Source of the DNA: Craspedostauros australis
Lineage: Eukaryota
Direction of reading: 5' to 3'
Length of the DNA stretch: 64,000 nt
Assembly (NCBI GenBank): GCA_030167865.1
Contig: JALAGF010003586.1
Coordinates: 62,001 to 126,000, forward strand
Of the stretch, positions 3,108-61,400 are shown piece after piece. A program made the translations under genes and the position numbers. Within the stretch, counting starts at the first letter, position 1, and every line of letters starts with the position of its first letter. A model generated the notes under the pieces. It was given only the letters and a program-made list of their open reading frames with translations, did not search any database and was not told where the DNA came from.

Positions 3108-4289
3108 TCACAACTCGCCCGATGTGGCGCCACCCGCAGACGCCGATTGGCCACCACCAGTGCCAGTACTCCTCGTAGAATGCCTGGATGCTGACTCCAA
3201 CGCTTGAAATTGGCGGAACGCCGTTTCCAACAGAATCCCGCCACCGCGCAGATCATCGCGCTGCTTGTCCTGCCCCAGCTCCCAAAAGAAGATGCCCGCC
3301 AACTTGTCACGCGTTGCATACAGCACCTTCTTGCGCACAGTGAGGGAATCGTCGAATGCATGCTGCTGCCAAGGAGACTGAATTTCTTTGACTGTCTTTG
3401 GTTGCAGCTCGTCGACGATCTCGGCAAAGGTCTTGACCTGCCCTGGCATCTGCACATGCCGACCGTACGCTGGGATGCCCAAGACGATCTTGTCGGATGG
3501 GCAGCCGGATTCCATCAATCCTCGGACCGCTCTGACAACCGCCGGGATGTACGCATGACCTTGCGAGTGCTGGACCATGTCGTACGTCATCAAATGGATG
3601 CGATCGAGGCCGTCGTAAACATCCTTCGACAGGTGCATGCCAGGTCGCAACGCGATGCTGACGAGGAGACCATGCGAATGCAGCACCTCAACTGCCTCCT
3701 TGAGGAAGGTCTCCACCAAGGCGTACACCTGCTGGTGGGATGGCTGCTTCGCATTCTTGTCTGCCAAGACGCAATCAAAGTCGACGCCATCGATGCCCTG
3801 CTTTTCACTGAGCGAAACCAGCTGCGACCACAACGTGGCGCGTTTGGTTGGATCCCGCGCGACGTCCACGAACCAATCTTGCCGACCGGCTCCTCCCAGG
3901 CTCACCCAAACGTTCAGCTTGTGCGTTGATGCGTCTTCTTCGCTGCCTGTGTCGCTACGGCGACTGCTGTCACTGTCACTATCTCCGTCATCATCTTGTG
4001 GAGATGTCACACGCGACGACTCTTCCTTGTAAGATCTGGCCTGGCCCGCCTGCTCGAAGTGATGATCCTCCAAACAGCAGCCCCCAAGCATCCCGCCTTT
4101 ACTCGGCGCCAAGCTGAAGAGGATGAGATCCGTGAGGTACGGCGCTGTGTTGTTGACGTTGATGTACGATCGGTATTCCGGAAGATACGCGGCTATGACA
4201 GGTCGCTGTGCATTGCAAAAGAAAGCGGGCGGCCCGCGCAGCCAGGAACATGCAATGATCGCCGTCGCAATGATCGCTGTTCGGTTCAT
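3108..4289 (-). CDS. GH18 chitinase-like protein, secretory, catalytic Glu absent
   Basis: Signal peptide. GH18 motifs VSLGGA, IDGVDFDCV, IHLMTYDM, KIVLGIPAYGR and AGIFFWELGQD. C-terminus ...SGEL. Single exon. Confidence 0.88.
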   Translation of the reverse strand: MNRTAIIATAIIACSWLRGPPAFFCNAQRPVIAAYLPEYRSYINVNNTAPYLTDLILFSLAPSKGGMLGGCCLEDHHFEQAGQARSYKEESSRVTSPQDDDGDSDSDSSRRSDTGSEEDASTHKLNVWVSLGGAGRQDWFVDVARDPTKRATLWSQLVSLSEKQGIDGVDFDCVLADKNAKQPSHQQVYALVETFLKEAVEVLHSHGLLVSIALRPGMHLSKDVYDGLDRIHLMTYDMVQHSQGHAYIPAVVRAVRGLMESGCPSDKIVLGIPAYGRHVQMPGQVKTFAEIVDELQPKTVKEIQSPWQQHAFDDSLTVRKKVLYATRDKLAGIFFWELGQDKQRDDLRGGGILLETAFRQFQALESASRHSTRSTGTGGGQSASAGGATSGEL

Positions 4290-5397
4290 GACGATGCTCT
4301 TGCGTCTCCGTCCGTTGATCTTGTTGTTGGAAGTAATGAATGTCCCACCTATGATATTATATGCTCCAGTCTATACCTTTCTCTACTTTACGTACTCACG
4401 ACTAGCTCGTATTCTATTCCAAAGATCATCGCATTGTGTCTGCAATGTTCATGACCTTCATGTTGTGGTGACAAGTTGCAAAACAGTGGCAAGACAAGAC
4501 GCGAAAGAATCATCCTCAAACAAATCCAGATCAAGGATACTTTTTGAGTGTTTCGGGAGGTGCGGTGAAATAGATATTCGAAATCAGGCTCGCTCGCAAT
4601 ACACATGAAAACGAGCCAGCCGAAAAGCTCCAGCAAACGTTTCGCATGCGAGATGCTCGCCAACGCCAAAAACGCTACCCACAAAAGGCCCAGAATGCCA
4701 GCGTGGTGTGTGAGATTCGTGAGTGTATTTTTGGCGTTGGACATTGGGGCTGTTGCTGCTTCTTCGTCTTCTTCATGAATCGTGTGACTGTTGTTGGTTG
4801 TTGTTGGGAAAGTTGATGTCACATGCCTGCATGCAGCCTTCACGATGTGCGAAGAGCACTGGTTGATGTGGAAAGCATCACAGAGAGCATCTTCGCGGTG
4901 GACACCAGAACACAACGAGACGAATCATTGTGTGTGTGTGAGAGAGAGAGCTACTTTACGCGTACTAAGACGTTACGAGGAACAATACCCACAGTAGCGA
5001 CACCAAAGGCAGAGAGAGAGAGAGAGAGAGAGCAATGGAGAAGACAACAGTAGAAGCGAAGTGCCGACGTTGACAACAATCACGTGAATTCTCATGCAGA
5101 AGTAAGAGTCGAAGCACTCTGTACATACTGGAGACAGCAGAGATTGTACTCTCCATCGTTCTCAAGTGGAGCTCCGCACTGCGAAGCGGAACAGAAGAGT
5201 AATCTCGACCATACCAATACCAAGATCAAGATCAAGATCACTATTGACGACACGCAAGCAAACGCATCATTTCAATCAAGGCAAACAAACAACAGCATTC
5301 CGATCCACTCTGCTCAACTCTTCTCCACTCGACGAGTACCCCACATTAAAAAGGTGTGTCTCTTTTAGATCACTCATCAGCATTCCAAACAAGTCTC

Positions 5398-8345: not shown

Positions 8346-9264
8346 GATGGTTTCTGACTGAGGAGCTAACCGAATACCAGAGTGATGGATCGGGTGATCG
8401 GACGGTAGTTGCAGTCACGCAGCACAATCAACAAAGATGTGATGAAGGTGGTGATGGTGATGTCTCACGCCTCTTCCTTGCTCCGTGTTGTTGCTGCGTG
8501 TTGTGTGTTGTGTGTTGTTGCAGCTCCGTTTTTGCTGTCCGCGCTGAAGCGGACAGACGAAGGCGCTGATAGGATTTTAGTCGACTCAGTCACATGTCGC
8601 CATACTTTTCTCCTGGCGCGTGGCGCACACGTTGGCGCAAAATCCTTTGTTGTTGGTGCGGTCGCCATCGTTGTTCGTGTTGCGCGCAGTCTTTGTCGTC
8701 GCTTTCCTTTGCCGTTGCCGTTGTCGTCGTTGCGACTGTTGTTGCGTCACTGGCACAAGCACACGGTAGGTCTTTGCACAACCACTCGACGCACATTGGC
8801 ATCTGTCTTTCACGTGAGTGCACGCAAGATGGGTCGCACGAACGGCAGGTCACGATATTGCATCCATGAAGAAGGGTATTCGAGCCACGGGCGTTCGTTG
8901 ACGGCATGATTCGTGCTGGTTGCGTCGTCATCCAGTGTTGGTCGATGCCGGCCATGTTTTGCTTGGGTCGGCGCTGAGGTACTGGGGAAGCTCCTCTGTA
9001 TTTTCGTATTGCAAGCAACTCAATTTCCGTATTCTATCGAGACAAACTGCGTATTCCATCGGAAACCAACACTCACCTGATGAAATCGTCCACACAACAA
9101 CACCAACAACAAACGATGATGACGATGGCGCCTCCTCGATGATGCTGTCTCGACAACAACGGCAACAACACCAACAAACGACGACGACGACGACGGCAAC
9201 CAACTCCACCACTCAACTCCAATCTGTTATTGCACGACAGTTCCACAAAAACAAAGACACAATC

Positions 9265-9894
9265 ATGTTCTCTTCTTTCAGCCGAACAGCCGCACGACGC
9301 GTTGCCACATCCGCGCGCGCATTTGCCACAGATGCCGCACACAAGCCCGTCATTGACCTGCACGGAATCAACGCCCGTTACGCCAATGCCACTTACGTCG
9401 CTGCCTCCAAGATCAACATGCTGGACACTGTCGAGGCCGAGCTCAACGGTCTGGCCAAGGCCGCCGGAGAGTCCAAGGCCTTCGCTGGCTTCCTCGAGAA
9501 TCCATTGATCCCACGCGAGGAAAAGATGGCCAACATCCAGCAGCTGTTGGACGGAAGCAAGGTCTCCACCATCACCGTCAACCTCTGCACCACTTTGGCC
9601 GGAAACGCCAAGCTCGCAGAACTTCCAAAGGTCGTCGAGCAGTACGCCTTGTTGATGAAGGCCAAGCGCGGACAGGTTGATGCCACCATCATCAGCGCCG
9701 ACAAACTCTCCAAGAAGCAGACCGACGAGATCGGCGCCGCCATCAAGGCCACCTCGAAAGACGCCAAGGAAGTCGTCATCAACACCGAGGTCGACCCATC
9801 CATCATCGGAGGCATTCAGGTGCAGATCGGAGATCAGTTCTTGGACCTTTCCGTCAAGTCCCGCATCGAGGAGATCGGCCGAACTCCACTCTAG
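9265..9894 (+). CDS. ATP5O: Mitochondrial ATP synthase OSCP (delta/O) subunit
   Basis: Presequence MFSSFSRTAARRVA. Motifs HGINARYANATY, FLENP, and VDPSIIGGIQVQIGDQFLDLSV. Confidence 0.95.
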   Translation: MFSSFSRTAARRVATSARAFATDAAHKPVIDLHGINARYANATYVAASKINMLDTVEAELNGLAKAAGESKAFAGFLENPLIPREEKMANIQQLLDGSKVSTITVNLCTTLAGNAKLAELPKVVEQYALLMKAKRGQVDATIISADKLSKKQTDEIGAAIKATSKDAKEVVINTEVDPSIIGGIQVQIGDQFLDLSVKSRIEEIGRTPL

Positions 9895-17349: not shown

Positions 17350-18821
17350 ATGGCCAACTTCATCAACCAGCAGCAACTGGAGACCTTCCTCAAGGCGGTC
17401 GCCAATGACAAGCGCAGCGGCATTGCGGCAGCCAGCACCGTCGGCATCGTGACCTCCATCCAGCTCTTCACCGATTGGGATCCTCTCGGTCGTTGTTTCA
17501 CCTTCTTCAAGCAACTGCGTGCGCAGGTAAGCAACGACAACAAGAACAAGGGTGCAGTGCTGTATTGCGTTGCATTGCATTGGAGGAATGGAGACAACCG
17601 TTGTTGAATGCAGGATGCTGCACACCGTATCTACAACATGTATAGACTCTGCATCAAAATCAACTCACGCACACTTCCCATTTGACCACATCAATTTGCC
17701 TCCAACTTCACCGCACCTCCACTTTCTACGCGCTGCGCTAAACAAAACTGAACTGAACTGAACTGCATACACCACGCTCCTATGCACCATGCTTCACCGA
17801 TCATTGACAGAACAAGCGCCTCTCTTGTGCCGGTGACGTCAACGAGGGCATCAGCGGATACGAGGACATCCACTCCAAGGATGCCGAGACCCGTTCCTCC
17901 AACTACAAGACCTTGGTCAACGCCTACTACGACCTCGCCACCGTCTTCTACGAGTGGGGCTGGGGCCCCTGCTTCCACTTCCACTACCGATTCTCCTTCG
18001 AGAAGTTCTGGGAAGCCACGCGCCGCCACGAGTACCAGCTCGCCGCCAAGATCGACGCCAAGCGCAACTCCCACCTCCTCGACGTCGGATGCGGCATCGG
18101 CGGACCCATGCGCAACATCGCCCGCTTCCTCAGCTGCAGGATCACCGGACTCACGCTGAACCCATACCAGGTGGCGCGCGGCAACGAGATCACCTCGCAA
18201 GATCCCACCGTCGTCGGCAAGTGCACGTCCGTGCAGGGTGACTTCATGGAGCTGCCATTCGACAAGAACAGCTTCGATGGTGCCTACGCCATCGAGGCCA
18301 CATGCCACGCCCCCAACCGCACCGACTGCTACAAGCAAGTCTACGACGCACTCAAGCCAGGCGCCCGTTTCGTCCTCTACGAATGGTGCATGACCGACAA
18401 GTACGACGCCAACAACGAGGATCACCAGCGCATGAAGAAGGATATTGAGATCGGAAACGGACTGCCGGACATCGCCACCACCAAGGACTGCTACGACGCC
18501 ATGAAGGCCGCCGGATTCGAAATGATCGAGGCCTACGACTACGCCGAGGGTTACGAACGCCAAGGACTCGCCAAGCCATGGATGACACCGCTCCTTCCAA
18601 GCTGGAACCCATTCTCGCAGCGCTTCCAGTTCAACTGGTTGGGCAGCCGCGTCACCAACGTTGCCATCTTCCTCATGGAGCTTCTCTTCATCGCACCCAA
18701 GGGCACCGTCAAGACCCAGAAAGCGCTGCAGGCCGGAGCCTTCGCCCTGCGCGATGCTGGTTGCGAGCACATCTTCACCACCGCCTACCTCATGGTCGGA
18801 CGCAAGCCGCTCAAGGCCTAA
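17350..18821 (+). CDS. SMT: Sterol C24-methyltransferase; exons 17350-17526 and 17811-18821
   Basis: SMT signatures YYDLATVFYEWGWGPCFHF, LDVGCGIGGPMRNIARF, YAIEATCHAP, YEWCMTD and IEIGNGLP. Intron GTAAGC...ACAG. Confidence 0.93.
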
Positions 18822-25819: not shown

Positions 25820-27016
25820 ATGTCCAAGTTCACAGCAACCACTTCCGCCACCAACGCCGCAGCGTTTGCCAGCATTCTGCTGTTGGCACTCGCCGGGTTG
25901 CAAGGCGCCGACGCCCACGGTCTCATGAACAACCCACCTGCTCGCAACCAGTACTGCGGTGTCATCACCAAGCCACACGAGGTGGACAATGGGGTCGCTG
26001 AGTATCCAGAGTGCGGCACAGCGTTCAACTACTTGGGGCCAGATAAGAAGACGAAGGGCTACGAGTTCATGAGCGTCCTGACCCACGATGTCGGATTGGC
26101 GGGCGTCTCCGCACTTCCCAATCACGTTTGCGGCTTTGACGCGGAGACCTTCCAGTTTGGAGCAACGCCTTGGGATGCTCCCATGAATTGGCCCACCACC
26201 ACCATCTCACCCGGTCGTCTCGAGATCGAGTGGGACATCTTCTGGGGCCCACACTTTGATGACACCGAGGAGTTCCGCTACTGGATCACCAAGGAGGACT
26301 TCGTGTTTGACGAGACGCGCGAGTTGACATGGGATGACTTTGACAGCGACGCATTCTGCGTCCTCTTCTACGATGATGCCAACCCAACCGCCAACCCGGA
26401 CGTCACGTCGAACAAGGGCGAAACCTGGTTCCGCACATACTGCGACATCCCCGACCGCCCAGGGCGCCATGTCATCTACGGCGAGTGGGGTCGCAACCAG
26501 TTCACCTACGAACGCTTCCATGGATGCATCGATGTCGTGATCGAGGGAGGAAGCAACCCAACCCCCACGCCGCCATCCCCAACTCAAGCACCAGCACCAT
26601 CTCCAACTCAAGCACCAGTGCCATCTCCGACCGAAGCACCTGTCACCTCCGAAAACGACCCAACCGTCTCGCCAACATTCACACCATCCACATCCCCAGT
26701 CTCCCCGCCCACCGCCCACCAGGCCGGCGATTGCACCGTCACCGTGCGCGACGGCAACAACCAATGGTTCGGTGGATTGGACGTCGGCTTCACGGGAAGC
26801 ACTGCCGTGCTCAACTTCGCAGGCACCGGATTGGACCTTGCCTCCATCCCCAACGATAAGCTCCAGGGTGTGTTCCATAACGTCGTGAAGTCCGGCAGCA
26901 CCATGGAGATCACCAATCCTGGCTGGGTGTCTCTGAACACCCTCGGCTTCATCGGCTTCGGCGGACCCAATGCCGGCCTGGCCAACTTTGTGGCCCCGAC
27001 CTGCATCACCTTCTAA
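25820..27016 (+). CDS. Secreted AA10 lytic polysaccharide monooxygenase + P/T linker + CBM2-like C-terminal module
   Basis: 32-aa signal peptide ending ADA, then His1 (HGLMNNPPARNQYCG). Second His in WGPHF, followed by YWITK, LTWDDFD and GRHVIYGEWGR...ERFHGCIDV. PSPTQAP linker repeats. Intronless. Confidence 0.92.
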   Translation: MSKFTATTSATNAAAFASILLLALAGLQGADAHGLMNNPPARNQYCGVITKPHEVDNGVAEYPECGTAFNYLGPDKKTKGYEFMSVLTHDVGLAGVSALPNHVCGFDAETFQFGATPWDAPMNWPTTTISPGRLEIEWDIFWGPHFDDTEEFRYWITKEDFVFDETRELTWDDFDSDAFCVLFYDDANPTANPDVTSNKGETWFRTYCDIPDRPGRHVIYGEWGRNQFTYERFHGCIDVVIEGGSNPTPTPPSPTQAPAPSPTQAPVPSPTEAPVTSENDPTVSPTFTPSTSPVSPPTAHQAGDCTVTVRDGNNQWFGGLDVGFTGSTAVLNFAGTGLDLASIPNDKLQGVFHNVVKSGSTMEITNPGWVSLNTLGFIGFGGPNAGLANFVAPTCITF

Positions 27017-27052
27017 AATGGATAGGCGCAGCGCAATCCGACTGACTCCGTG

Positions 27053-27062
27053 TCTCTCTCTC

Positions 27063-27100
<38 letters not shown>
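27053..27100. repeat. (TC)n/(GA)n microsatellite that forms a perfect 22-bp palindrome
   Basis: TCTCTCTCTCT|AGAGAGAGAGA at 27053-27074, followed by more (GA)n. Confidence 0.85.
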
Positions 27101-27890: not shown

Positions 27891-30800
27891 ATGCCAGGTT
27901 CCAACCCCAACGGACATGATGAGGAGACGACGCCTCTCGTGAAGGAAGCATCGACGACGGCAACGGCCGCAGATGCGAAGGAGACGATCGGAGGCACGAC
28001 GCCCGTGCTGAACGGATTCAAGGTGTACAAGGCCATGTCCAAGTGCTGCGGCTGCAAGAGCACGCCCAGCACCAGCGACAGCGGCAGTTCGACCATCGAG
28101 GAAGATGCCTGGAGCTACTTTGAGAAGATCCGGCTGCCGCGCCGCGTCCCGGTGTCCACGACGGCCGATGGCAAGGTCCGCTACCGCAAGGCAGATCCTG
28201 GCACGCCGGGATCCGTGCTGTACCCGGCATGGACCACCAAGATCGAGGATCTGTCCGACTTTGGCACGGGCATCGCCGTCTACTTCATGACGCTGCGGGC
28301 CACGGCGATCATGTGCTTCATCGCAGGTCTCATGTACATTCCCAGCCTGGTGTACTACGGATCTGACGAGTACGGTGCGTCGGATGGCAGCTACGCCGAC
28401 AATTTCCTGCTGCAGTCCTCCATGCTTTGCCCTGCGGCGGAATGGGTGCCTTGCCCCACCTGCACACCGGAGGAATGGTTCGACAACATGGATCGCATCG
28501 CCACCATCGTCAGCAGGGACGAGGATGGCACGGTCACGGGATCCTCCGCGCTCTACTTCGTGCTGCAGACCACCTGCGCGCCGTTGCGATGGCAGGAGGG
28601 TGCCAACCACCTCCTCGTCGTCGTCTTCCTCTTCCTGGGATTGCTGTGGCTGGGACATTACCAAAAGAACATGGAGCTCAAGGCGGATGAGGACATCCTC
28701 TCGGCCTCCGATTACAGCATCCAGATTGACAACCCGCCGCAGATGTCGGAGCAGACAGGACCGTTGACCTACGACCCCAAGGATCCCAAGGTCTGGAGGG
28801 ACTTCTTCCAGCAGTTCGGGCATGTGGTCTACATCACCATCGCGCTCAACAATCACGACCTGTGTCTGGCGCTGGCCAAGCGTCGTTCCCTGCTGCAGAA
28901 GCTGGGGTACAGCAACCCGCATGCGAACGACGGCATCGCAGCGGACGGGGACGAATCCGCGGTCTATGTTGGAGCAGGCTCTGGCGGACGCGCCAAGTTC
29001 GTGCTGCCATCAGCGGATTCCCGCACGGCCCGCAAGCACCCCGAGGCGTACAAGCAGCTCGTGGAGCTCACGGAGGAATGCAAGGTCCTGGTGCAGAAGT
29101 CCTACGAGATCTCAGCAGTCTTTGTCACGTTCGATAAGGAGAGTGCCCAACGCGCTGCGCTCAAGGCACTCCTCGTGGGGCAGGTCTACGTCAACTCCAA
29201 CGACACCTCCGTGTTGGCACCGGAGCACGTCTTCCAAGAGTCCATGGTGCTGGATGTCATGGAGGCGAACGAACCATCCGCCATTCGCTGGCAGGATCTC
29301 GATGAAACCATGCTCATCAAGTTGAAGGAGCGCTCCCTTAGCTTCATTCTCACGGTCATGATCATCGGCGCCGGCTTTTGGTTTGTGGAATTGTCGTTCG
29401 AGTACTCCGTCCAGAGGGCCGCCATCGTCATCACCCTCCTCAACATCATCGTACCGCACATCTTCAAGGCCGTCAACATGCTGGAGAGTCATCAGACCGA
29501 GGGCAGCTACCAGGCCAGTCTCTACACCAAGATCTGCGTCTTCCGTTGGATCAACACCGCCATCGTCACGCTCCTCATCAAGCCCAGCACCGCCACGCTC
29601 ACCAACTCCACGCAGGGACTCATCACGGCCATCTACACCATCCTCAAGGCCGAGCTCATGATCGCGCCCATCGTGCACGTTCTGGATATCGGTCACAACA
29701 TCCGAAGGCACCTTGTGTCGCGTCTCGTCGGCAAGTCCGCAGCGAACCCGGATTCCCTCACTCATTCCTCCATGATCTACATGCACTTCACGGGATCCAA
29801 GCAGAACCTGGGCGAAAAGTACACCAACCTCACCAAGACCCTCTTCATCGCCTTCCTGTACTCCGTGATCTTCCCCGCCGGTTACTTCCTTGCCGCCGCC
29901 GCCCTCTACATGACCTACGTCACGGACAAGTTCCTCCTCGTGCGATCGTGGGGACCCATGGCAGAGGTGAGCGACCAGGTGGCCCACATCAGCCGGCGCT
30001 TCTTCCTGCCGCTCTGCCTGGTCACGCTGTGCCTCACGTCGCAGTTCTTCTGGTCGTCGTATCCATTCGATGATGTGTGCGATGCCGACGCCATCGTATC
30101 CGCGCCCGGCACGCCAGGATACCCCAACGGCAGCGCCTCCGGATACCTCGGTACACACGATGTCTTGCCATTGAGCGTCTACAACGCAGGCACGGAAGGT
30201 CTTTACAATGAAAATGATTTCACCCAGATCACTGTTGAGCAGGGCACCGAACTGAAGCAATTCTGCGATCAGGATTACCTGCACCACATGACGGAATTCT
30301 TGGACACCTTCCGTTCCGGAGACGGCAAACACGAAGATGATTGGATGTCGCGCAGTCAACTGATCTTCGCGCATATCTTTGGATTGTCGAGCGTCGTCGT
30401 CTTCTTCGGCTTCATCATTTGGCGCGCCTCGCTGGATGTTCGCCCATGGATGAACGAGTTGTTGTATGGTGGATTCGTAAGTACTCCATTCGATTGCGAG
30501 CAATGCTGTTTCCTCTCTGTTTGGTGTGATGACGATGATGATGCTTCGAACGGATTGAACCACCCATGTATTATGGTATGCCAGAATGCATCCGCCAAGG
30601 CAACTCATACCTCACCTCTGCTTGTCTTCAACTTGATTATTTTTCTCTCGCCGCGTTGCGCAGTCCACGGACGAAGTAGATTCCGGCGAAAGTTACTGCG
30701 ATCAGACCAAGATCAGTGCCTACGTCCCCAGCATCGTCAGCAAGGAGTTTCTGTACCCGTTGTTGGCCTGCGACGTGCGTGACATGGACACCAAGCACAT

Positions 30801-30978
30801 TGGCTGGGTCGATCCATTCCGCAGCCATGACTTCTACAACATGGCGCACGATGTCGACGCGCTGAGGTCGGCAGCTGCCAGCGAACAATCTGGAAGCGAT
30901 GTGACGACAGCCGAAGACACGGAACCCGTGCTGAGCGTCATCAGTTACTTTCCCAGCAACACGAAGAAGACGACCTAG
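27891..30978 (+). CDS. OSCA/TMEM63 (CSC1)-like mechanosensitive/osmosensitive channel; exons 27891-30476 and 30664-30978
   Basis: About 10-11 TM segments. Motifs GTGIAVYF, SDYSIQIDNPP, AVFVTF, EANEPSAIRWQDL and DKFLLVRSW. Intron GTAAGT(30477)...CAG(30663) links to the ORF ending at 30978. Confidence 0.78.
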
Positions 30979-33284: not shown

Positions 33285-34496
33285 ATGGCGTCGAGACGAC
33301 TGATGAAGGTACGAGAATGCAAGGGTGTGTGACATGGCATCGCGTCCGTGGATGTTGTTGGTTCTGGTGCGCGCGTTTGGCGGCAACCCCCACTGCGGAG
33401 ATCCTGCTCTTCCTGTTGGGTCGTCATCTTGGTCGCCGGCGGGAAATTCTTTCGGGTTCCTCGTGGTGCGGCGATGGGCGTTGTGGCGGGGAGTACGCAG
33501 CCATGCTCATATCATCGTGCTGTGTTGCGTTGTGTTGCGTCCTCAGCGTTGTATGCGACGTTGCATCCAACAGATTCTTGCCGGAGTCTCACCATCACCA
33601 TGATCATCATCCTTTTCCCTGCTGTGCTTGCAAATGTGTATGCATCTTGGTGATCCACCCGCACGCTGCTCATGGCGCGAATCCAACATGGTTCCTTCGC
33701 TTTCGGGTTGGTTCGACTCGGTGATGTCTCGATCTGCGTCCGTGGTGGCGCACGAATCCGATGATCGTCCACATCCTCGTTCACATCGTTGTCCACATGG
33801 TCATCCAAACGACCGACGATCCCATTGACTCTTGTGCGTACATACGTGGATGCGTGGATGGTCCAAACGTCCCATCGGTCGATTGCTTGATCGATTGCTT
33901 GATCGATGGTTCCTGTTCTTCCTGCTTCCGTCATGCGGCATCGCGAACCGTTGCGTTTCCCGCTCCACGCGCCATCCCGCCACTTTCATGGACATTCGAC
34001 GCGACGCGATCTGATACGATGCGACGTTGCTGTGTTCCGCTTGCAATCTCCGTCATCGAACCTGCCGCAACAGGAACGATCCAAACTGGAGGCCGCCCCG
34101 TTGGAATTCTGCCCAGTGATCTCGCTGTCTGGCGACGATCTGTTTCAGTGGGAATGCCACGTGCTTGGACCCGTCGAATCTCCATACGCTGGAGGCACCT
34201 TCGTTCTGAAGCTCGAATTCCCGGCTCAGTATCCATTCAAAGCACCTACCATCAGATTCGCCACCAAGGTGTACCATCCATCCGTCAACCTGCAGTCGGG
34301 GGAGGTCTGCGCGGCCATCGTGGGGACGTGGAGCCCGACCCTGGATGCCAAGCATTGCCTGCAGGTGGTGTACTCCATGCTGCAATCGCCAGACTCCGAC
34401 CATCCGTTGGAGGATGACATCGCTCAGCAGATCCAGACGGATCCGAAAGCATTCGAAAAGATGGCGAAGAAGTACACAAAGGATTTCGCCAAGTAA
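33285..34496 (+). CDS. Ubiquitin-conjugating enzyme E2; exons 33285-33308 and 34074-34496
   Basis: Micro-exon MASRRLMK (donor GTACGA at 33309) splices to ERSKLE...GPVESPYAGGTF...YPFKAP..FATKVYHPSV...GEVC, which carries the catalytic Cys. Confidence 0.92.
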
Positions 34497-51864: not shown

Positions 51865-52914
51865 ATGTTCCAAAGAATTATTGTGAGCTGATACGCTCCC
51901 ACGAGATCGTATCACCAAATGAATGCATCAACGAACAACAGAGTACGAAGGCACCAGCCACGCACAAAACATAAAACATACCATAATGCTCGGACCGCAC
52001 CATGCGTGCAGCTGAAGGAATTGAGCGATGGATAGAGAACTCACGAATCCAGATCGCATCAAATTGAGAATGAATGAGTGGGTGGGTGGATGAATGAATG
52101 AAAGAAAAAAGAAACAACATGTAAATCGTGCCATACACGTGCCATACAACAGTGAGACTTCCATAAAGAGTAACAGAAACAGTAACAGTATTTCCAACTG
52201 AGCAGATCATCTCCAACTTCTCTGCAGAGAGAGAGAGAGAGACTCACCAAATACTCTCGAGAACTTGTCGTACAGGTATGCCGTCATTTTGGCAATTGCA
52301 CCATGGTGATCAGCGCCGTATCCGCACTCTGTCTACCTACACTTCTGCGAACTACATGACAACACCTCGACACAGCACCACAGCGAGCATCAACCCAATC
52401 CCGTGATAACCGAATCTCGTGAGTCGACCAAACCGATCAAAATCTGACGCAGTCGTGGACTTGTCGATTCGCGCCGACATGACTCGGAGCTTCTGACCAA
52501 TCAAAACGGCTTAGAATACGTCAGCAAATTGATGTGGAAAGAGAAGCCAAGCTGAAAGAAGCGAACATTCGGGAATGTTCTGCGCTGTGTCGAAAACGAA
52601 CCTTCGTGCGCGATCCGCAGAGGAAGAAACAAGAACCGCACGAAATGACATCCCTTCGAATTGCGCAGTCATCGCCTTTCTTCGGTGTCAGGTATCATCA
52701 TCAGCTTCTTGATGGACGTCATCACATCGCAGCGCTGCAGACAACACGACGCACACCCACCATCGATCATTTCAATCTCCTTTCCTCCCATAATTCCAAA
52801 CAGCGCAACAGCCGAAGCCACACCAAAGCAACGGCCAAGCACCAAACAAGCAAACCGAATCAACACAAATTACTCACAAACCTCCTCGTGGCAGAAACAA
52901 CCATAACGTCAACG

Positions 52915-55008
52915 ATGTTAGACGCCATCAACCCAGCCGGTTCATCGAGGACGGGCAGTACTCGTTCATCGCACGTCATGACGGTGGTGGTCATGGTAAT
53001 GGCGCTGGCGCTGGTCAGCGTCGAAGCGTTCCACCCAGCTCTGCCGTCCGTATCCAGATCTCCGCTGTCCAGGACGGCACCCAAGGCAGCAGCCAAGGCC
53101 ACATCCACGCAACGATACCTCTACGTCGACCCTGACGACGTCAAGTCAGGCGTGGGCACCATCATTGACAAGACAGCGACCTTGGATGCAGACAGCAAGA
53201 AGGAGACCGCAGAAGATGGCGATGTCTTGGAGGCGGCCACCCCTGAGACCGTCGTCGAGACTGCGGTGAACGGCGAGAGCATCGCTGCTGCGAACAATGA
53301 TGAGGACGAGGAAGAGAGATTCCTCAACATGATCAACAGCGAGGTGGCATTGAAGAAGTTCTTGGGCCAGACTGTCAAGACCGCTCGGGACATACCATTC
53401 GACATCCTCTTCGATCGAACACTCGACACGGTTGAGGATATTGTCAACATCGTCCGTCGTAAGCCCTTCGACTACGACTGGATCGCCAAGGAAGAACTGG
53501 AGAAGTGCCGCGACAAGACCGTCGTCGTGTTGGGCAGCGGCTGGGCTTCGCACGCCCTCATCAAGGCAGCCGACACGTACTCAATGAACCTCATCGTTGT
53601 CTCCCCAGTCAACCACTTCGTCTTCACGCCGATGCTGGCGTCGGCCGCAGTCGGAAGCGTGGAGCACACCAGCATGACCGAAGCCGTGCGCGCCTCCAAT
53701 CCGATGGTGGAATACCTCGAAGGTAAGGCCACGGACATTGATGTGGAGGGCAAGAAGGTCACCGTCCAGCTCAATTCCTTGCTGAAGAACACGGAAGACG
53801 CGGATGCGTCCCACAACAAGGACCCAGAACCAATCGAGATCGACTACGATGCCTTGATCGTGTCGGTGGGAACGCGGGTGAGGAAGTCCATCACGCCCGG
53901 TGCGGAAAAGTACTGTCACTACCTCAAGACCTCCAAGGACGCCCGCGACTTGAGGAGAGCCATTGGTGAAGTCCTGGAGTACGGATCGAGGCCCGATGTT
54001 TCCTCATCCGGAAAACTCAACAGCGATCCATCCGCAGAAGACCCCACCAAGAAGGAAGAACGCCGTCGCCGGCTGCGATTCTGCATCGTCGGTGGTGGCC
54101 CCAGCGGCGTCGAACTGTCCGGTGAGCTGAGCGACTTCTTCGCGGATGTCTGCCATCCGAAGAAGGGAACCTATCCCAAACTGAAGGATGAAATCGAGGT
54201 CCTGCTCGTGCACGGCGAGGACAGTCTGGTGACGCAGTTCGATAAGAACCTGCGCGACCACGCTTTCGAATCGCTGCAAAAGCGCGGCGTCAAGGTGATG
54301 TTGAATACCTTCACGACAGAGGTCGGGGAGGACTACGTGATTCTGATGGACAGGTACACAGGGATCAAGGAGCGTGTTCCGGTCGGCCTCACAGTATGGG
54401 CGGCTGGAATTGAGCCGGTCGCATTCTCCGAGAAGATGCTGGAGCAGCTGCCAGAATCCGCCCGTGGGATCGGTGGCAGGATCAACGTCGACAAGTGGAT
54501 GCGTCCGCCGATGCCTAACGATGAACTGATGGGCTCCATCATGGTGATGGGCGATGCAGCAGCCTTCATGGACATCGACCATGGCGACCCCAAGAAGAAC
54601 TCGTACCTACCCCAAACGGCTCAAGTCGCCGGTCAGCAGGGTGCGTACATGGCACGCTTGCTCAACCGCAAGTACAACCTCACGATGACGCCGCCCGTGT
54701 TGCAATCGGCAGCATCCAGCAACTCAACAAGCGACGCCCTCGACAACTGGCTGCGTTTGAGAGGCATGGAGGAGGCATCAGGCTTCAATTTTTTGAATCT
54801 TGGAATGCTGGCGTACGTCGGAGGTGGCGATGCGTTGTCGCAGATTCAGATTGGAGATGTCCCGCTCTTCGCCTACTTCGGCAGTGCGGGATTCGTCCTG
54901 TGGCGATCTGTCTACCTCGTCAAGCAGGTCGCAACGCGCAACCGTATCCTGGTAGCGTTCGATTGGTTGAAGACCGCTGTCTTTGGTCGTGACGTCACGA
55001 GGTTGTAG
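52915..55008 (+). CDS. Plastid-targeted type II NAD(P)H:quinone oxidoreductase (NDH-2)
   Basis: Signal peptide ending VEA-F-HP. Motifs VVVLGSGWA, SPVNHFVFTPML, IVGGGPSGVELSGEL, WAAG, MGDAA and PQTAQVAGQQG; C-terminus FGRDVTRL. Alternative start ATG at 52978. Confidence 0.92.
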   Translation: MLDAINPAGSSRTGSTRSSHVMTVVVMVMALALVSVEAFHPALPSVSRSPLSRTAPKAAAKATSTQRYLYVDPDDVKSGVGTIIDKTATLDADSKKETAEDGDVLEAATPETVVETAVNGESIAAANNDEDEEERFLNMINSEVALKKFLGQTVKTARDIPFDILFDRTLDTVEDIVNIVRRKPFDYDWIAKEELEKCRDKTVVVLGSGWASHALIKAADTYSMNLIVVSPVNHFVFTPMLASAAVGSVEHTSMTEAVRASNPMVEYLEGKATDIDVEGKKVTVQLNSLLKNTEDADASHNKDPEPIEIDYDALIVSVGTRVRKSITPGAEKYCHYLKTSKDARDLRRAIGEVLEYGSRPDVSSSGKLNSDPSAEDPTKKEERRRRLRFCIVGGGPSGVELSGELSDFFADVCHPKKGTYPKLKDEIEVLLVHGEDSLVTQFDKNLRDHAFESLQKRGVKVMLNTFTTEVGEDYVILMDRYTGIKERVPVGLTVWAAGIEPVAFSEKMLEQLPESARGIGGRINVDKWMRPPMPNDELMGSIMVMGDAAAFMDIDHGDPKKNSYLPQTAQVAGQQGAYMARLLNRKYNLTMTPPVLQSAASSNSTSDALDNWLRLRGMEEASGFNFLNLGMLAYVGGGDALSQIQIGDVPLFAYFGSAGFVLWRSVYLVKQVATRNRILVAFDWLKTAVFGRDVTRL

Positions 55009-55454: not shown

Positions 55455-58400
55455 TCACGCGAATGGGGTCGATGCAATCGTCTTCAGCTTCGCCCTGATC
55501 TTGCCCTGCCTCTGCTTCTCCGCTTCCAACGTCCGCCATATTGGACTGTTGCCTGTTGTGGGTGTGGAGCTGCGATGTGTTTGCTGCTGTCGCGGGGACG
55601 CCGTATCTATCGGTCGAGGTGACGGCGACGGCGACCGCGATGCAGCTCTGGATTGTGGTAAGTCCGCCAAGGAAGCAGCATCTTTGTCTGCATTTCTGGA
55701 TTTGATGACCATCCTTTTCGTTGGTGAATGGATCGAAGTTGACGGCCTAGCTGGAGAAAGGCGCCCATCATGGGAGACCTGTCTCGTGGCTTGCGGTGGA
55801 GTTGGACGCCATGGACCAGCGGTAGCATCCGCGCCAGGTCCATGACTTGATACTCTCATGGGGCTCAACTTTCTCTTTGATGGAGACTTTCTGTGTCTGG
55901 ACAAATTGACGGGTGACAACAGCGTCAGCTGGAACTCTTCGTTCGATGCTTCATCTGTCGATGTTGATCGTAGCGGAGGTGGCGGTGTGTGTATCGCTTG
56001 TTGCTGCGAACGTTCTTGAGGAGGAGGAGGAGGAGGAGGAGGCGGCGGCGGTGGATGTGGAGGTGACATGGCACTCCTATCCGTGTCTTGCTTTGGCGTT
56101 GAAGCCATTGTATTAGGCTTGGATGGCATCTCACGCGTCTTTGTTGGAGATGTCGATTGCTTGCGTGATGATCTGTGGTCGGAGCCTTGTGTTTTCTTCT
56201 TGTGCCTTGAGGCACGTAAATCACTCGCGGTCGTCCCACCTGGCTTTGATTGTCTTTTCTTTTCGTTTGGCGAAGCCGGGGCCTCCGTATGAGATGAGCC
56301 ATGTCTCGCAGACCGTTTGGTCGATGAGCTGTCGTGCTGGCTCCTCGATATTCTTGCTGTCCTCGCTGTACTACGAGCAGTATGCTGGGTTGTTGTGTGT
56401 TCATCGCCGCCTGCCTTGGACTTCTTCGTTGGCGACTTCTTCCTGTGTCTTGAGTGCTTCAAACTGACAGAAGATGGACTTCTGATGTCATCATCTTGCC
56501 TCTGAATTGCATTTTGCTTGCCTGGCTCCTTATGGGACCTACTACTCGTGGTATGGTGTGTCTTGCGAGCAGTCACAGATGGTGATCCGACGGAATGACG
56601 CCTTGGCTGCCTTGGAATGTGCACAATCCGACTTTTGGTTGTGGACAACTTGCTGTCGATGACGTGCGTGGTCGCAGCAGCGGCGGCAGTAGCACCATAG
56701 TCTTGTTCTCCGCTCGACATTCGTCTCATTGCGAACCGATGTCGTGGGAGAGAGTAGGAGACAGACTCTGAATGTGACGTTGCCGTGAACGCGGATTTCG
56801 ACGATGTGCGAGAGGATGAAGATGTGGTTTCATCGTAAAGCAACATATCACCGACGAGGCCGTGTGTTCTCTTCCACGGCGACAGCGATCTGTATGTGCG
56901 ATCTCTACGCCCGGACGCTGTCCCCTGCTGTACTGTTGATGACGCTTGTTCGACGCCGCTGCGATTTCCCGCTCGCACTGTTCTGTCACGATGGATCATG
57001 GGTGGCTTTGCAAACGCCTGCCTGTATTGCTGGGATGTTTTTGGTGGCGAATGATTCGTAGCTGGTATGTGCCGTAGTTGCTGCTGTTGTTCTTGTTGTT
57101 CCTGTTGCTTCTGCTGTGTGTCTGAAGCCGTGCCTCTCTCATCTGCACATGACTGCGCCGAGTCTGCTTCGTCGGTTCCCAGATATGGTATGGACAGCTT
57201 CTGCAGGACGAGATGTTTCGTCATCGAAGATGATCGAGTAGAGGGGGAGAAGCCGGCACCTGTCGATGGTGTGCTAGTGGATTCTGTTGTGAGCTGTGCG
57301 TCCTCATCTGTTTCAGTAGAAGCGCGCTGATTGTGTCTGCTGCTGCGACTTTTGGAGTGTCTTGTGTGGTACACTCGCATCTGCGTCTCAGCCTGTCGTC
57401 GTTGAGAAGCCTCCTTCGGTGATGGACGGGAGCTGCCTCCGGAATGTCGCACTCGAGGACTGGCGCTGCGCACCTTTCTCGATGAATGCGAGTGCGAAGG
57501 CGATTGAAACGAGCCGTCGTCCTCCCAAGTCTGCCCATGCTCTGAACGGTATCTCTTCTTTTCGTGTCTGCTTGACTTGTTGCGTGGACTTTCACCGTGA
57601 CGAGGCGAAATCAAGCCTTCACCCCTCTCCCCATTGCTAGCATGTACATTTTCATGAGCCGGGGTGTTCGTGTGCTCGATGATCGTCTTGGGCGACAAAG
57701 GTGGCTCAATTTGCTTCGCAGAATGACGCAGGCGCCGTGACGGCGACTGCCGGTTGGACGGTTTCGGGCTAATGTTCATACCACCTGGGCTGGAAGATGC
57801 TGCCGTCATCTTCCTTCCTCTTGGCGATGGTGGGACGTACGACACAGAACCACTCGATCCATGCATCGATTCAACCAGGTCCACAAGGATGCCCGTGTAA
57901 GTGGATCTCGCTGGGCGTGCATGAACCTTCTTCACGTGAATCGCGCTTGACAGAGAAATGAATTGGTCGAGCTTGATCCCACGCCGCTGCGTTGATTCGT
58001 GCTCGTGATCGCCACCGCCAGTACCAATGTCAGTACCAATGTCAGTACCACTGCTGCTTTTGGTATTGATTTTGGCCGCAGCATCACCGATCTTGCCGGT
58101 GAATATCCTATCCTTCTTCACTCCTCTCTCAGGACTCGCATGGTCTCGCACGGCAAATCGGTTCGATGACACGGTGTATTCCTTTGCGGCTGTCTTGGTC
58201 CCCTTATTTACATCTCGCGGCTTCAGTGCGATGATGCGTTGGGGGGTCACAGAGCGTACGTTTGCCTTCTTGAGTGCCCCGCGTTCTCGATGTTGGTCAG
58301 TCCGTGCATCTGTTTTGCTTTCATTGCCAGACGTTGCCTTGGTCCGATTGGCCGTTGCGATCGTCTCCTTCGACTGGCTGTTAGGGCCATGCAACGATGA

Positions 58401-61400
58401 CGGGATCAATGTCGGCGGCGGTGGCGGTGATGATTGAGATGAAGATGAGAAGGACGTCGATCCCGAAATCGCATGAAAACTCGGGCCAAGAGACACGGTT
58501 CCTTCTGAATACACCAGCGATGATGTGGATGCCGCTCCATGGGGTGGGTGCTGCCGGCCGTGACCAATTTGCAATGGCCTGTTCCGCCGTTGGTTCACGA
58601 ATGCAGAATTCTCACTTTGGAACTCAGCCCGACGTCGGTCGTTGTCGTTGTTGGCGCTGCTGCTATCGTCGTTCGAAGACGACAGATTCTTCGGAGGTGT
58701 ATCATCAAGGAAGTTCTGGCCGAGCAAGGACCCTCCGCTGATGGTCCCATCATCTCCTATTCCAAACGAATCAGACGTTGACGACGAACGTCCCGAATAT
58801 GCCGAGTGCATCGACTTTCTATGAGCCGAAATGGTGGAATCGACCAAGGGGACCATGACGATATTCCTTTGAACACTTGGACTGTTGTTGTTGTTGTTGT
58901 TGTTGTTGTCGGGAGCCTTGGGCTCACCGTCAATGATCTTTTTCGACTGCATCGTCGCACTGAGCGCAGCGCGCACCAAGGTGGATTGCCATTCTCGGAA
59001 GGAGCCGCTGGCCGTGCGCTGCACGCCCAGAGGGGTCGCACCGGCTGAATTCTCCCCAGTTTCTTCCAATTCGGATGGCGGTGCGTATTGCTTTGACGAC
59101 GACGATGCAGACGAGGAGGATGGCGACAAATTGAGGAGGTTCTTTCCAGCTTCCCATGAATCCTCCGAGATGGATAGGCTTTCTGCCTTCGTCGCGCGCG
59201 GACGAGGAAGCTTCTGCGTTTGTGCGCGAGTTGGTTTCGACGCCGAGCCATGCTGTGCTGAGTGCCGATTGCGTTGTTTGCGTTGGATCTGCGCCTGTAC
59301 CTGTGTTTGTGCTTGCGCTTTTGCCTGTGCTCTGGATCCTTGTTTTGTGTTGCTTCTCTCAGCTGTCTTGTCTGATGTCGTCTTGGCGTCTTTGCGGGTC
59401 TTATCATTGGTTTGTGAGGTCGATTTGGACTCTTTCGCATGAATGTCTCCGATCGCCGATCCCTCTTTGGCAACATTGAGCTGCGTGAAGGAGTCATCGT
59501 TGCCGTCCTTGGTCGTACTCTTTGTCGCCTCCGAATTCCGTTGCAGTATTCCTGATTCTGCTTTCTCTCTCGACCGCTGCTTGGATGCGAATGAGAAAGA
59601 TCTTGGCTTCTTGATGGTTTCGTCGGGTGCCGAGCTCCTCTTCTGATTCGCTGCAGATGCCTTGGGCTTCCGAAGGAAGAAGATCTTTGAAAGCGACGAA
59701 TGAAGCCTTGACTTGTGAGAATGTCGTTTAGGTGGAGGGGGCGGAGAGAGCGACACAGACTCCTGCCGGGCCACTGCGGTCTTTTGCTGCTGCCGGCCTC
59801 GAGTCGCAGTTCGTTTCGCAGCCTGTGGAAGTGGCTTTGATGAAGCTTTTGGTGGCATTGGTCCTATCTTCGCTGTTGTGGTTGATTTCGCCTTTGCTGT
59901 TGCTGCTGTCTTCGATCTTTTCGACTCCGACGATACCTTGGTGGACGGAACAGGCGTAGGCGATGTGGCTGTGGATGTCCTCGGCGAGTTGGCCAACCGC
60001 CTCCTTGACGAAGGCTTCTGTGGCGGCTGCAAGTCTGCCTCAGCACTGCCTGCCTTTCCGGTACTTGCTTCAGTGACTTGCTGTCGATTCTCGTCGTCTC
60101 TCTTGTCATGCTTTGGATACGACGCAACGGCGAGTGACGGAAGGGTTGGTATGGAAACAGATATTGAGGAAGCGAACGTCATGTCTGAGTTTATGTTCGA
60201 TGCGAGAGAGGACGATGGACTTCGAATCTGCGTCTGCATGTGCTGCTGTATGGTGTACTTTGCTGATCGCGATGACACGGACGATACGGATGATTTGATG
60301 CCAGATGAAGATGACGATGAGGTATGTGACTGTTCTCGACGATTCTTCTTGTGAAATAGTACTGTCGATGGTGGACTGTGGAATGACATTGATTGTAGTG
60401 CTGTTGATCCTGACGCAGATACAGATGCGGCTGCAGAACTCGATGTTGCTGCTGCTGCTGCTGCTGCTGAGAGATTGATGTCAGGTGTGCTTGTTGGACT
60501 TGCGGCTGTCTTCGTAACTGGAAGCATGTCCTCCTTTCGATGGGAAGGTGACGGGTCGTACTTCAATAGAATGGGTCGGCCTCCATCTTGTTGTTGGTTA
60601 GGTGAGTCAGAACGGTTGTTGCTGTTTGGCTCCTGTTGTCGTTTCGTGTCACTCGTCGTTGCCGGAAGGGCAGGCTGCGATGCTTTCGTTTCCTTACTTG
60701 GAGATGTTGTTCGTTTTGCATCGGTGGATGGATGATGACTTAGATCCGCACTCGGCGTGCGCGATTCGGAGCTCTGATTCGTCCGTTCCTCGGCCACCGT
60801 GACATGTTCTCTTGCATCTTCACTCTCTCCATCGCGTGCGTGCGAGTCTACTGTATCGGTCGATTTTGGTGCGGAACTTGACGAGAATGATGGCGCTGAT
60901 AGCGATGGCAGTGATCGCGATGCCAACGGAGACGACGGCGGTGACGCTTGCGCCGATGAAAGATGCGGCAACGCGAAACTTCTGCTGCTATCGTTGAGAT
61001 GCAAAATCTCGAACGACTCTGTGTCGACAGGAATGTGCGAAGACCCCTGCACAACCATCAAGGGTTCTTGGCTGTGGTTGAACGAGATCGATCGCGAGGA
61101 AGCACCGGATGCGGAGTTGGTCGTTTGCAGAGCTTGGCGTTGCCGTTGCAATTCTTGCGGCGATGGCAGGACGAGTTGGAAGCAAGATCTGGAGCTGTGA
61201 AAGACGGTGCCTTTCCTTTCAAGTTTGCTCCTGTTCCTGGTTTGAGCGCCGTCATCGCCGTCATCGCCGCTGTTGTGGATTCGATCGCTCCTTTCGGTTT
61301 GAATTCTGCTTTCAATTTCAATTCCGGTTGCCTCGTGACCATGTGATGGCTGGGAGCGTTTTGCTGGTGATAGATGCAGCTTGCCAGAAGTATAAAGGTT

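Follow-up and report, generated by a model that had tools for sequence, protein, structure and literature searches.

How does a diatom chromosome come to carry a polysaccharide-attacking enzyme of bacterial type, and what would such an enzyme do there? The question is raised by a single gene (25820..27016, + strand) in a stretch of 64,000 nucleotides of Craspedostauros australis (GenBank assembly GCA_030167865.1, contig JALAGF010003586.1, positions 62,001 to 126,000 of the forward strand). This stretch is hereafter called the window, and all positions are counted from its first nucleotide. The predicted product of the gene is a lytic polysaccharide monooxygenase (LPMO) of family AA10. LPMOs open up crystalline cellulose and chitin. 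To our knowledge, almost all AA10 enzymes characterised so far are bacterial, and we know of no cellulose made by diatoms themselves. Diatoms have often received genes from bacteria. A first interpretation, made from the nucleotides and their open reading frames and referred to here as the sequence-only reading, had proposed that this alga acquired an oxidative polysaccharide-degrading system from bacteria. The explanation that we consider likely, taken as a whole, is that of a diatom nuclear gene for a secreted LPMO with two modules and an old bacterial origin.

The coding sequence is complete and intronless. It starts at the first in-frame ATG (25820), ends with a TAA stop codon (27014-27016) and encodes 398 amino acids without internal stop or frameshift. 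Four parts were distinguished in the protein: a signal peptide, an AA10 LPMO domain, a Pro/Thr/Ser linker and a C-terminal domain, hereafter named X. Neither a second AA10 match (six-frame translation) nor a second X domain was found elsewhere in the window. The predicted signal peptide comprises residues 1-32 (25820..25915, + strand) and has a hydrophobic core at about residues 13-28, where the 9-residue Kyte-Doolittle means exceed 2 in the windows starting at residues 13-20. Signal peptide cleavage commonly follows the A-x-A rule, and the residues before His33 are ADA. His33 aligns to residue 1 in two mature crystal chains, 9i1u_A and 6rw7_A. From these features we infer that the signal peptide is removed at the ADA/H junction and that the protein is secreted.

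The AA10 domain covers residues 33-241 (25916..26542, + strand). The Pfam LPMO_10 profile (PF03067) matched residues 33-239 over its full length (1-183 of 183, E 3.9e-30, 106.3 bits for a cut-off of 23). Comparison with the PDB gave nine distinct solved sequences at E up to 0.01. The top match was 9i1u_A (Cellvibrio cbp33/10B; E 1.8e-72, 247.9 bits, residues 33-241 against 1-205), followed by 6rw7_A (TtAA10A; E 9.1e-50, residues 33-247). The remaining matches were far weaker (CbpD at 3.3e-7, 5fjq at 3.7e-6, fusolin and others), and these more distant solved relatives are all bacterial or viral. The protein is thus closer to the Teredinibacter/Cellvibrio AA10 enzymes than to the CBP21-like ones (E 3e-7 or worse), as the sequence-only reading had proposed from its motifs.

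In the ungapped part of the alignment to 6rw7_A, residues His33, Gly143, His145 and Phe233 correspond to His1, Gly105, His107 and Phe195 of TtAA10A, where His1 and His107 were assigned to the histidine brace and Gly105 and Phe195 to the axial positions (PMC6767633). His33, predicted to be the N-terminal brace histidine after cleavage (CAC codon, 25916..25918, + strand), also aligns to His1 of 9i1u_A and is nearly invariant in an alignment of 28 sequences (A1). The putative axial glycine and second brace histidine lie in Gly143-Pro144-His145 (26246..26254, + strand), inside WGPHF, with the CAC codon of His145 at 26252; both Gly143 and His145 are invariant in A1. The axial Phe233 (codon at 26516) lies in the motif E231-R-F233-H-G-C236 (26510..26527, + strand), in which E231, R232, F233, H234 and C236 are invariant in the same alignment. 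The two brace histidines and the phenylalanine are located exactly where the sequence-only reading had placed them. Most of the motifs that it quoted also stood, since FMSVLTH, HVCGFDAET, WGPHFDDTEE (quoted as WGPHFxDTEE), RELTWDDF (quoted as RELTWxDF) and GRHVIYGEWGRNQFTYERF are all in the protein, with EWGRN and ERFHGC intact. YITK did not, because the window has WITK at this place and YITK is the form of TtAA10A. All six AA10 cysteines are retained. The full-length profile match and the alignment to 6rw7_A identify the protein as an AA10 LPMO whose histidine brace is intact. Since the copper site is intact, we take the LPMO to be active, with copper binding and catalysis predicted.

The AA10 domain is followed by a linker of 60 residues (26543..26722, + strand), of which 38 are Pro (18), Thr (11) or Ser (9). 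At this place the bacterial relatives have PKD-like and GbpA_2 modules. A repeat search detected three tandem 24-nt repeats within the linker (26573..26644, + strand), encoding PSPTQAPA, PSPTQAPV and PSPTEAPV, with copies 100, 88 and 71% identical. These repeats are a sign of recent repeat growth.

Domain X (residues 302-398, 97 amino acids; 26723..27013, + strand) is homologous to the C-termini of relatives and is bracketed by Cys305 and Cys395. It was absent from the sequence-only reading and is the least known part of the protein. No Pfam match (only noise at E up to 10) and no NCBIfam match was obtained for it. A protein search with the whole LPMO gave 398 matches, of which the best 120 were listed, and local phmmer placed X at the C-terminus of 26 of these 120. 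When 1.84 billion cluster representatives were screened exhaustively with phmmer, X was detected in 31 clusters at E up to 1e-3, including 19 at E up to 1e-10. In an alignment of 58 copies, the bracketing cysteines are almost always kept (Cys305, 56 of 56; Cys395, 54 of 56), and six columns (316, 317, 333, 352, 369 and 377) were each aromatic in at least 55 of the 58.

We then looked at the proteins that carry X. A Pfam scan, which took in 27 of the 31 representatives, identified AA10 in three, GbpA_2 in two, the end of a GH18 domain in one (P0262), Big_2 in one and VWD in one. Two others had families below the cut-off, two were set aside as low-complexity and 16 had no family. Protein P0250 contains an N-terminal fragment weakly like the end of GH45 cellulases (E 0.13), and P0242 and P0243 consist of tandem X-X without any enzyme domain. 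X therefore occurs as a discrete, linker-joined module on carbohydrate-active domains in several architectures (AA10, GH18 and, weakly, GH45-like), and also on non-enzymes (with VWD, with Big_2, or in tandem). Because X stands at the C-terminus behind a linker, is attached to AA10, GH18 and weakly GH45-like domains, and has conserved cysteines and six aromatic columns, we read it as probably a carbohydrate-binding module (CBM) that would hold the enzyme on its substrate.

The possibility that X is a CBM2 was considered and rejected. MAFFT overlaid CBM2 on X, but when 58 copies of X were compared with 52 of CBM2 by hhalign, the probability was 0.18% (E 0.33), and no protein carrying both X and CBM2 was found. 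Pfam detected no CBM family, CBM10 and CBM2 included, in the window protein. Comparison of the X profile with the PDB gave a single match of 20 residues (E 1.2), to residues 108-127 of the "cellulose binding protein" 4jcw/4js7, which is a lead and not a result. We take 4jcw/4js7 to be bacterial expansins, with the match at the start of their second domain. Of note, X is also found in the vWD/GDPHF-type proteins P0264 and P0270. The vWD/GDPH type was described as diatom-specific and linked to adhesion (PMC7335047). The occurrence of X in proteins of this type and in tandem X-X proteins suggests that surface or adhesive proteins have recruited this module.

To place the catalytic domain among its relatives, we examined the organisms and layouts represented in the searches. 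Most of the 120 best matches are about 540 amino acids long and combine AA10 with GbpA_2 and often with CBM2 or CBM10. The names among the matches listed are those of Silanimonas algicola, Hahella, Gilvimarinus, Steroidobacter, Acidobacteriota and other bacteria. The only one labelled eukaryotic is P0085, an MMETSP transcript. Instead of X, P0085 has a Cys-rich unit of about 50 residues (CCGWGGSC...-type) that is repeated three times at residues ~290-500 and has no Pfam match at E up to 0.1. In the collection of bacterial and archaeal genomes, 166 relatives were confirmed, all of them bacterial, and 78 loci were kept. X is carried by two of these loci, L012 in a metagenome-assembled genome (MAG) of Granulosicoccaceae and L004 in a betaproteobacterial MAG, and it was not found elsewhere in the 830,686 bases of the retrieved loci. 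The neighbours of L012 encode an Lhr helicase and an amidase and the contig of L004 is too short, so that neither is informative on the substrate. The X-bearing proteins of bacteria have the order AA10, PKD-like, GbpA_2, X. The layout of the window protein (AA10, Pro-rich linker, X) is shared by P0002, P0004, P0012, P0019 and P0023. Short basic tails, RRNLR or RRMLR, follow X in P0012, P0023/P0258, P0248, P0249, P0257 and P0261, and none is present in the window protein. Their form is presumably close to that of the RXL motifs at which diatom wall proteins are processed. Given their layout, the RRNLR-type tails and the co-occurrence of X with vWD/GDPHF proteins, we call the five proteins eukaryote-like and infer a eukaryotic origin for them. 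Two further fragments, P0259 and P0245, also combine AA10, a long PT/ST linker and X; the best BLASTP matches of their AA10 parts are bacterial sequences outside the clade of the window protein.

Unrooted trees grouped the protein among bacterial AA10 sequences, in agreement with the bacterial-type origin proposed by the sequence-only reading. A FastTree analysis of 187 AA10 domains, with P0019 as a partial row and 12 exact duplicates merged, joined the window protein with P0002, P0004, P0012, P0019, P0023 and P0085 (support 94), beside P0003 and P0005. The same seven rows were joined at 98/93 by IQ-TREE on 70 chosen rows, and in 98% of 200 bootstrap trees. They fell inside a set of 24 rows (99/98) with the X-bearing bacterial proteins, P0005 and P0003 being nearest. 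The other set of 46 rows (99/98) holds Cellvibrionaceae, Steroidobacter and others. The tree of X domains was poorly resolved; in it the X of the window pairs with that of P0002 (88), and both group with P0003, P0005 and P0244 (91). Since the X tree also pairs the window with P0003 and P0005, AA10 and X seem to share one source. The LPMO gene thus probably descended from this bacterial AA10 group by an old transfer. The direction, from bacteria to eukaryotes, follows from the fact that all the more distant relatives seen are bacterial or viral, and not from a root. A private and recent acquisition, which the words "this alga acquired" of the sequence-only reading would imply, does not fit a codon usage that is host-like and a clade shared with six eukaryote-like rows, one of them the MMETSP transcript.

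The DNA around the gene was then examined for signs of its residence in the host chromosome. The neighbouring genes on both sides contain GT-AG introns. The upstream gene, for a mitochondrial carrier, needs an intron since its first Mito_carr repeat begins at the end of one frame and resumes in another; a donor GTGAGT at 23119 and a candidate CAG acceptor at 22865 would delimit 255 nt. The downstream neighbour (27891-30978, + strand) has an intron of 187 nt in phase 0, from GTAAGT at 30477 to CAG at 30663, followed by 104 more codons. An intronless gene between intron-containing eukaryotic genes, as the sequence-only reading described it, was therefore confirmed. The label OSCA given to the downstream gene was not, because RSN1_7TM reached 22.4 bits for a cut-off of 28.7, and we call this gene OSCA-like. 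The description of the chromosome as intron-rich was overstated, with uninterrupted single-exon frames of 2159, 988, 841 and 730 amino acids among those in the window. Because many window frames run for 700-2100 codons without interruption, the lack of introns in the LPMO gene is not remarkable and has no diagnostic value. The 64 kb contain no N. The flanks of the LPMO gene are AT-richer non-coding DNA, and a palindromic (CT)n/(GA)n microsatellite (27046-27096) starts 30 nt past its stop codon. No mobile-element or repeat borders were detected around the gene by the repeat search, and tblastn for a plasmid or phage vector gave no match in either collection. At third codon positions, the GC content of the gene (GC3) is 0.734. 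Its relative synonymous codon usage (RSCU) correlates with that of the pooled host genes at 0.69, a value that falls within the 0.58-0.86 spanned by eleven host frames; the corresponding values for the X-bearing bacterial homologues are -0.01 (L012) and -0.35 (L004). According to the assembly, the LPMO gene is a genuine diatom nuclear gene, physically located within a eukaryotic chromosome.

These data can be assembled into a mechanism and a history. The signal peptide would be removed after Ala32, leaving His33 as the N-terminus. The amino group and imidazole of His33, together with the imidazole of His145, would hold one copper, with Phe233 and Gly143 in axial positions. With O2 or H2O2, the reduced copper would hydroxylate C1 (possibly also C4) in a surface chain of a crystalline beta-1,4 polysaccharide and thereby break that chain. 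The 60-residue linker would tie the catalytic domain to the disulfide-bracketed X, which may keep the enzyme on its substrate. The source would be AA10-PKD-like-GbpA_2-X genes of Gammaproteobacteria-like organisms, and the transfer would be old enough for codon usage to have turned host-like. The middle modules (PKD-like and GbpA_2) would have been lost, with the repeat-bearing linker in their place.

The observations that weigh against this explanation concern both the origin and the function of the gene, and each was set against the rival that it might favour. Bacterial contamination or a chimeric misassembly could be evoked by the absence of introns and by the fact that the closest full-domain matches are bacterial. 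We judge it highly improbable because of the intron-bearing eukaryotic genes directly on both sides, the absence of N over 64 kb and a codon usage (GC3 and RSCU) that matches the host and differs from the X-bearing bacterial homologues. Moreover, the AT-richer flanks with their microsatellite, and the layout without PKD/GbpA_2 and with a 24-nt-repeat Pro/Thr linker, argue against it, this layout being unlike that of every bacterial relative seen and like that of the eukaryote-like proteins. A different origin, which we regard as possible if doubtful, is that the AA10-X gene reached the window lineage independently of the other eukaryote-like sequences, by repeated transfers from the same bacterial group. 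An approximately unbiased (AU) test did not reject a clade of the window protein with P0003 and P0005 (p 0.414, difference in log-likelihood 3.96). The identity of the window protein to the bacterial P0005 in AA10 (64%, with 52% in X) is about the same as to the eukaryote-like P0002 (63%). The AA10 part of P0259 falls in a different starred bacterial group (99), with Cellvibrionaceae rows; by that tree the layout would have to have arisen at least twice, and more than one event or AA10-X lineage may thus be involved. The trees are unrooted and contain no outgroup sequence, and the five sister sequences are eukaryote-like by architecture alone, only P0085 being labelled eukaryotic. No organism-named diatom protein was present among the best 120 of the 398 matches, although the database holds named diatom proteomes. 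On the other hand, the seven rows were joined in both analyses with the supports given above and have all lost the PKD-like and GbpA_2 modules, P0259 is possibly not eukaryotic, and a fully host-like codon usage speaks against a recent separate event. A single old transfer remains our preferred account.

As to the substrate, cellulose is somewhat the better candidate, chitin comes clearly behind it, and a dual specificity or another polysaccharide would be less expected still. Cellulose is favoured by homology, since TtAA10A and CjLPMO10B are cellulose-active, Gly143 is shared and relatives carry CBM2 or CBM10. TtAA10A was described as releasing products from cellulose only among thirteen substrates, which included alpha- and beta-chitin (PMC6767633). 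The axial residue that precedes the second brace histidine is Gly143, not Ala, a TtAA10A-type feature in the alignment to 6rw7_A, and the same report tied Gly at the axial position to a cellulose-type copper geometry and Ala to a chitin-type one (PMC6767633). An active enzyme that remodels or recycles the diatom's own chitin (fibres or wall-associated), or attacks that of others, with X binding chitin, is nevertheless an alternative, in line with the biology of diatoms, to which we give a minor share of the probability. CjLPMO10B is classed as cellulose-active, yet was placed in that half of the AA10 tree where chitin-active enzymes prevail (PMC6771041). The diatom PF03067 sequences expressed in the ocean were treated as chitin-related (PMC10134812), and LPMO10 domains of Thalassiosira rotula were reported in GH18 "chitinases" (bioRxiv 10.64898/2026.07.09.737548). 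In addition, the GbpA_2 module of the bacterial relatives is named after an N-acetylglucosamine-binding protein, P0262 has X joined to a GH18 end, and the window contains a GH18-like frame (3108-4370). The latter is 21 kb from the LPMO gene, without X and without sign of co-regulation. Against chitin, both characterised relatives, by far the closest, are cellulose-active, and many members of the clade carry CBM2 or CBM10 (among the best 120 of 398). A weak argument in the same direction is that the L2 stretch YEFMSVL is mostly hydrophobic, compared with the polar Y(W)EPQSVE of the chitin type (PMC6771041). Finally, the protein could have lost catalysis and serve as a surface-binding, adhesive or copper-binding protein. 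Thirteen of 139 family-conserved columns depart from the consensus, when most bacterial members depart at 1-4%; they include R93L, with R in 27 of the 27 other sequences, and W44Q. The presence of X in P0264 and P0270, of a type linked to diatom adhesion (PMC7335047), would agree with such a role. We consider it improbable, as H33, G143, H145, F233, ERFHGC, EWGRN and the six cysteines are intact and the frame is undisturbed.

No cluster accompanies the gene. Pfam analysis of 20 + 79 other frames of the window for a gene cluster or a redox partner gave housekeeping genes and one GH18, so that the "system" of the sequence-only reading reduces to one gene; among these 99 frames, the only carbohydrate-active match is the GH18 frame 21 kb away. 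This frame (3108-4370, - strand) matched PF00704 (E 2.1e-27), with its best solved relative at just E 2.5e-8. Genes for the ATP synthase OSCP subunit (8902-9891, + strand), a sterol methyltransferase (17808-18818, + strand) and a ubiquitin-conjugating enzyme (E2; 33903-34493, + strand) were identified by Pfam, and their presence indicates an ordinary eukaryotic gene neighbourhood. Other frames encode an IRK-type channel, a TauD protein and an Rce1-like protease, in addition to the mitochondrial carrier. An NDH2-type gene (52483-55008) has 493 relatives. Among the best 120 of these, all 15 that bear an organism name are diatoms, with Fragilaria crotonensis first (59%), followed by Mayamaea, Seminavis, Nitzschia, Cylindrotheca, Thalassiosira, Skeletonema and Cyclostephanos; the best unnamed match is 66% identical. 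The uninterrupted frame of 2159 codons (55455-61934, - strand) matched none of the Pfam families at E up to 0.001.

Pfam counts of diatom PF03067 proteins have already been published, and X is the part that may be new. Because bacteria-to-diatom transfer is common and diatom PF03067 has been reported, the finding itself is modest. The more original point is that X, a rare domain, is common to bacterial LPMOs and eukaryote-like proteins, including those of vWD/GDPH type. If X binds polysaccharide, it would found a new CBM family and would mark the shuffling of domains that followed the transfer. One could go further and suppose jointly that X is a new CBM family, that a cellulose-specific bacterial LPMO brought it into diatoms, where it was later shuffled into surface or adhesive proteins, and that the enzyme is directed at foreign cellulose, this last point because diatoms, as far as we know, make none themselves. 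We regard this combination as rather speculative. Should it hold, the recipients would be the tandem X-X, vWD/GDPH-type and RXL-tailed diatom proteins, and the candidate targets the beta-1,4-glucan walls of oomycete parasites or cellulose-walled algae, in defence, competition or feeding. If the diatom copy derives from a cellulose-active branch, major marine primary producers would hold oxidative tools for polysaccharides that they are not known to make, which would matter for the relations of diatoms with parasites and bacteria and for carbon turnover in the sea. The statement of the sequence-only reading that stramenopile LPMOs are mainly AA15/AA17 overlooks the published diatom counts (PMC10134812; bioRxiv 10.64898/2026.07.09.737548). 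In the literature searched, no description was found of a diatom AA10 of this subgroup, of its bacterial origin or of the X domain. The main text of a survey of horizontal gene transfer in diatoms (10.1101/2020.01.24.918219) contains none of the terms chitin, LPMO, lytic, cellulose and polysaccharide, and its supplementary gene lists may include the family.

Several known systems resemble parts of the window protein. The diatom PF03067 proteins reported so far belong to the same Pfam family and the same organism group; they comprise 1,232 Bacillariophyta sequences in Tara Oceans (PMC10134812) and LPMO10 domains in several transcripts of T. rotula (bioRxiv 10.64898/2026.07.09.737548). As described in these reports, which is the level at which we compared them, they are Pfam matches that were interpreted as related to chitin, some of them in fusions with GH18 or CBM14, and the available descriptions give no subfamily, phylogeny or X-type domain. 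The GbpA family of Vibrio cholerae (NF009690) also has AA10 followed by accessory modules, and the bacterial relatives share its GbpA_2. Membership of this equivalog was rejected, with 55 bits for the window protein and 104-114 for the bacterial relatives against a cut-off of 481, and X is not matched by the model. LPMO10B of Cellvibrio japonicus (9i1u), which is cellulose-active (PMC6771041, PMC4817175), has the N-terminal His, GPHF and ERFHGC in common with the window protein. It is bacterial and has a CBM10 (PMC4817175) in the place taken by X in the window protein, whereas the latter has a eukaryotic-style Pro/Thr linker and host-like codons. TtAA10A (6rw7), from the shipworm symbiont Teredinibacter turnerae and crystallised as the catalytic domain alone, shares the residues of the copper site and acts on cellulose only, with C1/C4 oxidation (PMC6767633); its second copper site (Glu5/Asp101/His165) is not kept in the window protein, which has N37/D139/W203. 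The nearest proteins in both the AA10 and the X trees are the bacterial AA10-PKD-like-GbpA_2-X proteins (P0005, P0003, P0018 of Silanimonas algicola, L012 and L004), for which no published study was found in the literature searched. They are ~540-640 amino acids long, with PKD-like and GbpA_2 modules, ~200 residues in all, separating AA10 from X, and have bacterial codon usage. They form the only bacterial group found that shares both AA10 and X with the window protein.

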